From Escherichia coli (GTDB lineage Bacteria > Pseudomonadota > Gammaproteobacteria > Enterobacterales > Enterobacteriaceae): a DNA stretch of 501 bases. This document shows, in pieces, positions 1-501 of this stretch. The notes beneath the pieces are model-generated. The model was not told the DNA's origin, searched no databases, and saw nothing but the letters and a program-made list of their open reading frames with translations. Both the position numbers and the translations under genes were made by a program. Where the stretch lies: assembly GCF_003334335.1 (NCBI RefSeq), contig NZ_QOWQ01000181.1; one strand, written 5' to 3'. Positions within the stretch are counted from its first letter, which is position 1; each line of letters begins with the position of its first letter.

Positions 1-501
1 GTTGCAATGCTGTTTATGATGCTGTCAGTGCATGGGGTAGAAAGCTGGGCATCTCCAGCAATTTTCATGACCTCAACATCTGCATATCGAATACCGAGGT
101 GTATCAGACCGGCTATGCCTGACTTAAGCCGAGCATTTTCCATAAATAGAACTTTTGCCCGCTGTTTTTCTGCTTCAAGCTCAACGCGCAGCTTCCCTAC
201 CGTTAGCGCAATATCCTCGTTCTCCTGGTCGCGGCGTTTGATGTATTGCTGGTTTCTTTCCCGTTCATCCAGTAGTGCCAGCACGGTAGCCGGGTTAGCC
301 TCTGCTATGAATTCAGCGTTTGCATAAGCCTGAGCATCTGTTTCAATCAGGCAGTTAATATGACATTCCGCAATCACGCCACCGGGTTCTCCTTTCCATT
401 TTTGGCAAACAAAAACTCCTGTTAAATTGCCGTGCTGGTTAACAGATGTATGCCCTACGATGTAGCTTCCTTTAGTTGCTTTCTCTGCCTTTTCACGCAG
501 T
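1..501 (-). CDS. Partial CDS, both ends outside the window: probable ead/Ea22-like family prophage protein (N-terminal domain, central coiled-coil, start of C-terminal region)
   Basis: Seen in sequence: the minus-strand frame with codons + 500..498 down to + 5..3 is open for 166 codons; the other two minus frames have stops within the first 15 codons. Translation (N to C): LREKAEKATKGSYIVGHTSVNQHGNLTGVFVCQKWKGEPGGVIAECHINCLIETDAQAYANAEFIAEANPATVLALLDERERNQQYIKRRDQENEDIALTVGKLRVELEAEKQRAKVLFMENARLKSGIAGLIHLGIRYADVEVMKIAGDAQLSTPCTDSIINSIA. Composition is protein-like and codon choice is enterobacterial-looking (ctg, gaa, aaa, ccg). Family assignment rests on recalled motifs (AEKATxG, conserved W, ANPATVLALLDE followed by a charged coiled-coil); it is not a database result. 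Start codon lies beyond 501 and stop codon beyond 1. Confidence 0.75.
123..281 (-). other. Predicted coiled-coil segment within the CDS (residues ~74-126 of the visible fragment)
   Basis: Seen in sequence: LALLDERERNQQYIKRRDQENEDIALTVGKLRVELEAEKQRAKVLFMENARLK is rich in E/K/R/Q with hydrophobic residues (L, I, V) at roughly heptad spacing. No coiled-coil predictor was run. Confidence 0.5.

Follow-up and report, generated by a model that had tools for sequence, protein, structure and literature searches.

The 501 nucleotides analysed here (hereafter "the window", meaning the whole stretch at its full length) are very probably a piece from the middle of an ead/Ea22-like gene, an early, non-essential and modular accessory gene of lambda-type temperate phages. 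Within its family the gene is an ordinary, annotated and already known member: the mosaic build of Ea22 has been published (PMC7093339; PMC10834534), the family and its prophage setting are likewise on record in the literature or in RefSeq, and the biological weight of the fragment itself is small. The first-pass annotation had also placed the window in a prophage accessory region, arguing in part from its base composition. According to our data, this placement is carried by homology and by the prophage that surrounds the gene in the closest relative, whereas composition contributes nothing to it.

Identity and mosaic anatomy of the gene

Only one of the six reading frames, located on the minus strand, is open across the entire window. 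Positions 3-500 hold the complete codons 9-174 (166 codons) of an open reading frame (ORF) of 182 codons, flanked at the window edges by one base of codon 8 and two bases of codon 175, with the start codon and the last seven codons lying outside. In a megablast search, the window is 99.8% identical to genes annotated as "ead/Ea22-like family protein" in Escherichia coli 99RCEF and NCTC9112, 98.6% identical to sequences of O104:H4 outbreak strains and phage Lys8385Vzw, and 98.2% identical to phage PhiR5_1, in which the gene is annotated as Ea22. The proteins of the two closest relatives (WP_439402585.1 in 99RCEF and WP_033805601.1 in NCTC9112) comprise 182 amino acids with the same three-module layout, and each of the two genes is one base off the window. 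For 99RCEF, this sole difference at window position 255 is synonymous (Arg codon, AGA vs AGG), and the amino acids are the same over all 166 complete codons. The exact 501 bases, with T at position 255, are present neither in the 5,426 complete E. coli genomes, the phage collection and the 73 IMG/VR contigs, nor among the contigs retrieved by exact-protein lookup or in a collection with one genome per species; every full-length relative differs from the window by at least one base.

The family assignment is based on the full-length 99RCEF protein as query, residues 9-174 of which are the same as those encoded in the window. This protein matches the Pfam family PF13935 (Ead_Ea22; InterPro IPR025153) with an i-E value of 4.2e-37, aligning residues 2-151 to positions 1-139 of the 139-position model, and PHROG 368 with an E value of 8e-63; all of its PHROG matches are families of unknown function. 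A protein search returned at least 8,000 homologous clusters; among the matches listed, 120 of 120 carry PF13935 and the naming sources almost all read ead/Ea22-like. No match to the Ea22-like protein was found in NCBIfam or among PDB sequences, and none at E <= 1 in PADLOC-DB v2, a library that consists of defence models and not of anti-defence models. At the nucleotide level, Rfam returned nothing at E <= 1, and promoter-like or terminator-like sites occur in the window at the same rate as in shuffled sequence, which gives no sign of a hidden RNA element.

The longest ORF that lies wholly within the window is found on the plus strand (positions 7-327, 106 amino acids). That it represents a real gene is hardly conceivable, as it runs antisense to the frame with very strong homology and the Pfam match, and the gene is annotated on the opposite strand in all five annotated records, namely in four E. 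coli genomes and in PhiR5_1.

Table 1. Position of the gene fragment and its three modules in the 501-nucleotide window (residue numbers refer to the 182-codon ORF)
Feature	Position	Strand	Remarks
ead/Ea22-like gene, internal fragment	1..501	-	Sole frame open across the window; assigned by homology
N-terminal region, residues 8-78	291..501	-	N-terminal helix (…NYQALREKAEKATKG) plus Stx-type insert
Coiled-coil core, residues 79-120 (…LALLDERERNQQYIKRRDQENEDIALTVGKLRVELEAEK)	165..290	-	Family signature, most widely shared part
Variable C-terminal module, residues 121-175	1..164	-	No kinship to the C-terminal domain of lambda Ea22

The fragment is composed of three modules (Table 1), each of which has its own distribution. 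The N-terminal region carries an insert of roughly 50-60 residues that is present in Ea22 proteins of Stx phages and absent from lambda Ea22; accordingly, a BLASTP alignment with the lambda protein covers residues 1-19 and then opens a gap of 44 residues. A segment of 63 residues absent from lambda has been described before (Goddard et al. 2024, PMC10834534), and two alternative versions of the insert occur among the close relatives in our alignment A2. The coiled-coil core contains 34 consecutive residues, LLDERERNQQYIKRRDQENEDIALTVGKLRVELE, that are identical to lambda Ea22, and its columns are invariant in alignment A2. It is predicted as a long helix with a pLDDT of 78-87, the sole confident part of an AlphaFold model that is otherwise poor (mean pLDDT 55.8).

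A comparison with complete E. coli genomes points to the same division. Parts of the window are matched by 2,496 of the 5,426 genomes, most of them through the coiled-coil segment, and the window in full by 58 of the 5,426. The boundaries of these matches cluster at window positions ~165-173, ~284-290 and ~317-323. The resulting mosaic breakpoints at ~165, ~287 and ~320 coincide with domain boundaries, which supports the reading as a modular ead/Ea22-like gene. On its own, the C-terminal module is present at 516 places in 479 of the 5,426 genomes, and 215 of these places are on plasmids; the plasmid records among the matches listed are 94-113 kb in size, and in these E. coli 94-113-kb extrachromosomal replicons the module is joined to other N-terminal parts. 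It is also found in records of P1-type, roughly 108-kb, lambdoid, Stx and ~39-kb phages.

The named relatives illustrate how the modules are combined. Lambda Ea22 (NP_040612, 182 amino acids) belongs to the same family PF13935 and shares the N-terminal helix and the core segment with the gene described here, together with the last seven residues GIRIKGE, for which the DNA is the same as well (21 coding bases and the stop codon). In contrast, it lacks the N-terminal insert (roughly 44-60 residues), and its C-terminal domain, the structure of which has been determined by NMR, shows no kinship to the C-terminal module found here. The Stx-phage Ea22 variants V1, V2 and V3 (PMC10834534) share with the window an insert-bearing N-terminal region as well as the coiled coil. 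At the DNA level, the match does not begin before window position 170 in the Stx phages P32, P22 and F422 or before position 165 in the phages 1717 and 2851; identity amounts to 96.7-98.2% over positions 165/170-501 for F422 (V1+V2), 1717 and 2851 (V3), but in this DNA comparison the likeness ends at ~165-170 and the C-terminal module is left unmatched. The same C-terminal module, with 95-100% DNA identity, is found in the EaD or Ead/Ea22-like genes of the ~39-kb phages Gally and Salmonella phage VSe13 as well as in Ea22-like genes of P1-type and ~108-kb phage genomes and plasmids. Full-length relatives end in …GIRIKGE and thus with the K/R-G-E tripeptide described for the family by Dydecka et al. 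2020, the codons of which lie just outside the window.

Prophage setting and base composition

In 99RCEF, the gene is part of a lambdoid prophage of 48.9 kb that is located between tRNA-Ser and yccA. The att sites, integrase and phage structural genes that the first-pass annotation had proposed to look for are all present around this copy. An exact direct att repeat of 65 bp (positions 774462-774526 and 823340-823404 of the 99RCEF record) duplicates the 3' part of tRNA-Ser, and a tyrosine integrase adjoins the right copy. The structural genes include terminase, portal, protease, decoration, capsid, tail tube, tape measure and gpJ with a full lambda-type tail; lysis genes (holin, lysozyme), immunity genes (a CI-like repressor of the LexA family and Cro), a DnaC-like replication protein, RusA, a Q-like protein and three tRNA genes complete the element. 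Judged by the setting of its closest relatives, the window is prophage accessory DNA.

The position of the gene within the early region varies. Downstream of the replication genes and in front of HokD, DUF968 and RusA it is found in 99RCEF, NCTC9112, JE86-ST05 and the contig CAJCLT010000057. In PhiR5_1 and the O104:H4 prophage, it is located on the integrase/excisionase side of the early-left (exo-xis) region, which is the classical position in lambda; in PhiR5_1 it lies between int/xis and exo/bet/gam. In the three chromosomal relatives closest to the window, the gene lies outside exo-xis, on the downstream side of the replication genes, so that its expression timing may differ there. The ea22-like gene and the ORF that follows it travel together in every neighbourhood examined.

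The first-pass annotation had correctly remarked that the window contains no defence gene. It had also pointed to the flanks as a place where such genes are often found, yet PADLOC detected no defence system among 20 neighbouring proteins (within about 10 kb). The hits obtained were lone-domain matches, namely an N6/N4 DNA methyltransferase (Type II or orphan), a DEDDh exonuclease domain, the HTH of the repressor and a DnaC-like ATPase (partial, DrmD-like). By annotation or gene calling, the early regions at large also contain toxin-antitoxin genes (HokD, a YdaT-family gene, RelBE or ParE/PaaA2, and HipA).

The state of these neighbourhoods raises the possibility that the gene copy is a decaying and non-functional remnant in a defective prophage, which would be compatible with its Ea22-like identity. 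The ORF directly downstream is annotated as frameshifted in 99RCEF, NCTC9112, JE86-ST05 and O104:H4, a DUF551 gene farther on is split into partial pseudogenes in the first three of these, and the annotation of JE86-ST05 lists the ea22-like gene, too, as truncated. However, all 166 codons of the window are open, the sole difference from the closest relatives is the synonymous one described above, and phage PhiR5_1 and contig CAJCLT010000057 both carry an intact copy next to intact neighbours. We consider decay of this copy doubtful.

With regard to base composition, the count given by the first-pass annotation was exact: 237 of the 501 bases are G or C, which corresponds to 47.3% (A105 C130 G107 T159). 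The conclusion that this value is meaningfully below that of an E. coli-like chromosome does not follow. As a host sample we used 179 kb of non-prophage chromosome of E. coli 99RCEF, made up of three 50-kb stretches and the host DNA flanking the prophage. In 3,529 overlapping windows of 501 bases, the mean GC content is 50.3% with a standard deviation of 5.0%, and 26% of the windows have a GC content of 47.3% or less (z = -0.59 for the window); one 50-kb host stretch has 47.2% when taken as a whole. A binomial model at 50.8% GC gives P(<=237) = 0.064. Therefore, a GC content of 47.3% is unremarkable for an E. coli sequence of 501 bases and speaks neither for nor against foreign origin.

The prophage of 99RCEF offers no better contrast, as its overall GC content of 52.3% is above the host mean, with 55-60% in the late and 45-53% in the early region, and no more than 17.5% of the windows taken from it have a GC content as low as that of the query. 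At 47.3% GC, the kernel densities amount to 4.80 for the host and 4.88 for the prophage, resulting in a likelihood ratio of 1.02 (prophage/host). Over the wider range of 20-40 kb, which the first-pass annotation had suggested to inspect, the surroundings of the gene in 99RCEF are host-typical with 49.8% (+/-10 kb) and 50.7% (+/-20 kb) compared with a host mean of 50.1-50.2%; host windows of 10 kb have a mean of 50.1% (sd 2.6%) and range from 43.9% to 53.9%. Neither at the scale of the window nor in these flanks of the closest relative does the GC content fall outside the host range. The same annotation had named flanks with host-typical composition and devoid of phage genes as the outcome that would speak against a prophage: in 99RCEF the composition is indeed host-typical, whereas an absence of phage genes is contradicted completely.

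Codon usage, which had been proposed as a further check, is slightly more distinctive but not decisive. GC at third codon positions is 42.8% in the window and 56.4% (sd 7.9) in host gene chunks, which places the window at the 8th percentile of the host, and the log-likelihood score of its codon usage lies at the 20th percentile of host chunks, a comparison based on a small sample with long ORFs as stand-in for genes. Furthermore, the mean GC content around Ea22-like genes is 47.4% (sd 1.7) in 74 IMG/VR loci with stretches of up to ~15 kb, and the 5 kb to either side of the gene have 47.0-47.3% in PhiR5_1 and the O104:H4 prophage. These values would fit the idea that a low GC content is by itself a genuine sign of horizontal acquisition, but all of these locus values are inside the normal range of the host, and the third-position GC of the window is likewise at the 8th percentile of the prophage's own genes. 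Taken together with the likelihood ratio close to one, the frequency of equally low host windows, the above-host GC content of the prophage in the closest relative and the host-typical flanks, we regard this idea as very improbable.

The GC content is uneven along the window. The middle, with 52-55%, has the local value of the coiled-coil core, and the outer third on either side has 43-46%. The 47.3% of the window thus reflects the two moderately AT-rich end modules of the gene. Since host windows vary by +/-5% and lambdoid prophages have on average a host-like or higher GC content, the GC content of 500 bases cannot flag them in E. coli. The methodological lesson is that such regions are recognised by homology and not by the GC content of a 500-base window.

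Proposed function of the Ea22-like protein

For a proposal on function, we rely on analogy to the Ea22 proteins of lambda and Phi24B. Ea22 has been described as a three-part mosaic that is tetrameric when full length; tetramers were found for full-length lambda and P27 Ea22 and dimers for their C-terminal domains (PMC10834534). By analogy, the protein encoded here would oligomerise via its coiled coil, and the oligomer would present the C-terminal domains to a putative partner. Made early after infection or induction, the protein may bias the lysis-lysogeny decision toward lysogeny, and such a bias would be expected to lengthen the latent period, reduce the burst and let more hosts survive. 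Recombination swaps the C-terminal module among lambdoid, ~39-kb, P1-like and roughly 108-kb phage genomes and plasmids.

The phenotypes from which this proposal is transferred have been obtained with deletion mutants. Deletion of ea22 shortens the latent period from 35 to 30 min in lambda and from 135 to 85 min in Phi24B, raises the burst size from 68 to 96 and from 25 to 110, respectively, and lowers host survival in both phages (PMC7093339). Lysogenisation is decreased in the lambda mutant and becomes independent of the multiplicity of infection in the Phi24B mutant (PMC7093339). In lambda, the gene is non-essential (PMC10695390), and the C-terminal domain alone does not reproduce the phenotype. 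The two proteins with a measured pro-lysogenic effect, lambda and Phi24B Ea22, differ from the one described here in their C-terminal domains.

In this context, a different role has to be considered, in which the Ea22-like protein is a coiled-coil carrier of swappable C-terminal effectors directed against host recombination or defence and not mainly a regulator of lysogeny. Such a role would fit the free trade of the C-terminal module among unrelated types of temperate phages, the junction of ribosome-binding site, stop and start codon by which the gene is joined to varied downstream genes, and the predicted PD-(D/E)xK-fold, MmcB-like protein encoded downstream in the present case. Besides, a 2026 preprint points to phages in which Oad2, a relative of an OLD inhibitor, forms a fusion with an EaD/Ea22 protein, and it describes loci related to recombination as a reservoir for anti-immunity proteins. 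[quoted passage not shown] In view of this evidence, we think that a carrier of effectors is unlikely and prefer the reading as an early accessory gene with a putative effect on the lysis-lysogeny decision.

The 3' junction and the downstream open reading frame

Just outside the window, the gene ends with …ATC AAA GGA GAG TGA T ATG…, in which a perfect AAGGAG Shine-Dalgarno sequence is contained within the codons for K-G-E and stands six bases before the ATG of the next ORF. This arrangement is widespread among Ea22-like ORFs on IMG/VR contigs, a set of 72 loci that were chosen by a shared 51-mer and are not independent of each other: the KGE ending is present in 60 of the 72 ORFs and AAAGGAGAGTGA in 59, and an ATG follows one base past the stop codon in about 52. 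Across these loci, the junction is common to at least 12 different downstream genes and to many C-terminal modules. Most of the exceptions that have a close next ORF show purine-rich, Shine-Dalgarno-like ends, for example GGAGGTGAG, AAGGGGAAG and CAGGAGGTGAA. Lambda ea22 has the same last 24 bases, though no ORF follows directly.

The "+GE" motif at the end of Ea22 proteins has been reported with the remark that its significance is not known (Dydecka et al. 2020, PMC7093339). Judged from the nucleotide sequence, the simplest explanation would be that the mRNA and the module junction are constrained, and not the protein.

The recurrence of this arrangement allows a further-reading proposal, in which Ea22-like genes are a cassette-loading site and the C-terminal module of Ea22 forms a pair with a nuclease that acts on host recombination or defence and not on lysogeny. 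The conserved 3' junction AAAGGAGAGTGAnATG would then supply the ribosome-binding site, stop and start codon, and at the same time might serve as a short homology patch for swapping the C-terminal module and the downstream cargo between phage families; in the present case, the cargo would be the predicted MmcB-like PD-(D/E)xK nuclease. We regard this proposal as quite improbable. Irrespective of it, the overlap of the +GE motif with the ribosome-binding site and the downstream family with its nuclease fold could be of interest to the community working on the lambda exo-xis region.

The downstream ORF itself encodes 171 amino acids and lies outside the window. It is intact in PhiR5_1 and on CAJCLT010000057 and frameshifted in four chromosomal copies. 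Searches of Pfam, NCBIfam, PADLOC and PDB sequences gave no match for this protein, and its family comprises 2,553 clusters at 50% identity, in which P39 and D40 do not vary and E37, E53 and K55 are almost invariant. An AlphaFold model with a pLDDT of 94.2 is most similar in Foldseek to PDB 3dnx (function unassigned; E = 3.5e-6, TM 0.58/0.66), which we take to be a member of the DUF1052/MmcB-like family. Weaker matches are Hjc resolvases, Bax1, the R2 endonuclease domain and HincII, all of them PD-(D/E)xK folds. The protein is thus predicted to have a PD-(D/E)xK nuclease fold, an assignment made solely by structure prediction and a subsequent fold search.

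The 3' end of the ea22-like gene and the ORF that follows

The final codons of the ea22-like gene read AAA GGA GAG TGA and are followed, after a single base, by ATG, so that a perfect AAGGAG for the next ORF lies within them. Among 72 Ea22-like ORFs on IMG/VR contigs, which were picked by a shared 51-mer and are not independent, 60 end in KGE and about 52 have the stop codon, one base and then ATG, while the genes downstream of this junction are of at least 12 different kinds. The "+GE" C-terminal motif of Ea22 was called unexplained (Dydecka et al., 2020); it is probably accounted for by the AAGGAG ribosome-binding site of the next ORF. 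Lambda ea22 retains the same 24 bases, although there is no ORF directly behind it.

The gene linked to the ea22-like gene via this KGE/stop/ATG junction is an ORF of 171 aa, for which no match was found in Pfam, NCBIfam, PADLOC or the PDB sequences. It is a member of a large family, which comprises 2,553 clusters at 50% identity, and carries the conserved motif E-PD-ExK. Its AlphaFold model (pLDDT 94) matched PDB 3dnx in Foldseek with E = 3.5e-6, and the weaker matches are other PD-(D/E)xK nucleases. In four cases, namely 99RCEF, NCTC9112, JE86-ST05 and O104:H4, the ORF is annotated as frameshifted.

Coordinates of the features discussed (L001 and L003, E. coli 99RCEF prophage region; L002, phage PhiR5_1; L007, NCTC9112; L009, apparently the O104:H4 prophage; L010, lambda; L012, contig CAJCLT010000057)
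Feature	Record	Position	Strand	Remark
C-terminal module	window	1-164		matches H94-H96, H112-H115, H122, H125, H136-H138
ea22-like 3' junction	L001	19974-20000	minus	1-27 bases past window position 1
lambda ea22 3' junction	L010	2348-2371
171-aa ORF next to ea22-like gene	L012	7230-7745	plus
Same 171-aa ORF	L002	2853-3368	minus
Frameshifted copy of 171-aa ORF	L001	19796-19974	minus
ea22-like gene and downstream ORF	L001	19796-20730
ea22-like gene and downstream ORF	L002	2853-4136		compared with L001
ea22-like gene and downstream ORF	L009	8796-9760		compared with L001
99RCEF prophage	NZ_CP196679.1	774522-823400		spanned by L003 and L001
Toxin-antitoxin	L007	14319-14798
Toxin-antitoxin	L012	1515-1996
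Toxin-antitoxin	L002	7915-9488
Toxin-antitoxin	L001	17933-18088, 24056-24481

Module exchange within Ea22-like genes

The C-terminal module recurs at 95-100% DNA identity in phage genomes or plasmids, both P1-type (about 94-99 kb) and of about 105-113 kb; of the 516 places that it occupies in complete E. coli genomes, 215 are plasmid-borne. The module is thus exchanged between temperate phages that are integrated and ones that are extrachromosomal. The window differs from every full-length relative at only one base, position 255 in the coiled-coil core, which is T where the relatives have C, a synonymous difference in an Arg codon. Ea22-like genes with other end modules, on 73 IMG/VR contigs and one Shimwellia contig, commonly have T there. 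This T hints that recombination or gene conversion occurred inside the conserved coiled-coil core. Besides, one close homologue, P0010 (183 aa, partial record), has the 30 residues GSYIVGHTSVNQHGNLTGVFVCQKWKGEPG tandemly duplicated in its N-terminal domain (columns 19-80 of A2, the protein alignment of close homologues).

Prophage setting of the gene pair

The same ea22-like gene and downstream ORF are found at two distinct positions in prophage genomes: downstream of the replication genes (99RCEF, NCTC9112, JE86-ST05, CAJCLT010000057) and, close to int/xis, in the classical early-left region (PhiR5_1, O104:H4). The gene directly upstream of the pair varies among the loci examined, with 69, 73, 74, 79 or 104 aa.

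The GC content of the 99RCEF prophage is strongly two-toned, with 53-60% in the tail and head region and 45-48% in the immunity, early-left and integrase end, and the prophage average of 52.3% therefore masks both extremes. This prophage also has three tRNA genes, one of which is tRNA-Ile according to RefSeq but tRNA-Met (anticodon CAT) according to ARAGORN.

The slot next to the repressor holds varying toxin-antitoxin pairs among otherwise alike prophages, with RelB/RelE in NCTC9112, ParE/PaaA2 in CAJCLT010000057 and HipA together with "HipD" in PhiR5_1. The four loci in which the ea22-like gene follows the replication genes have HokD and a YdaT-family gene, by annotation or by gene calling.
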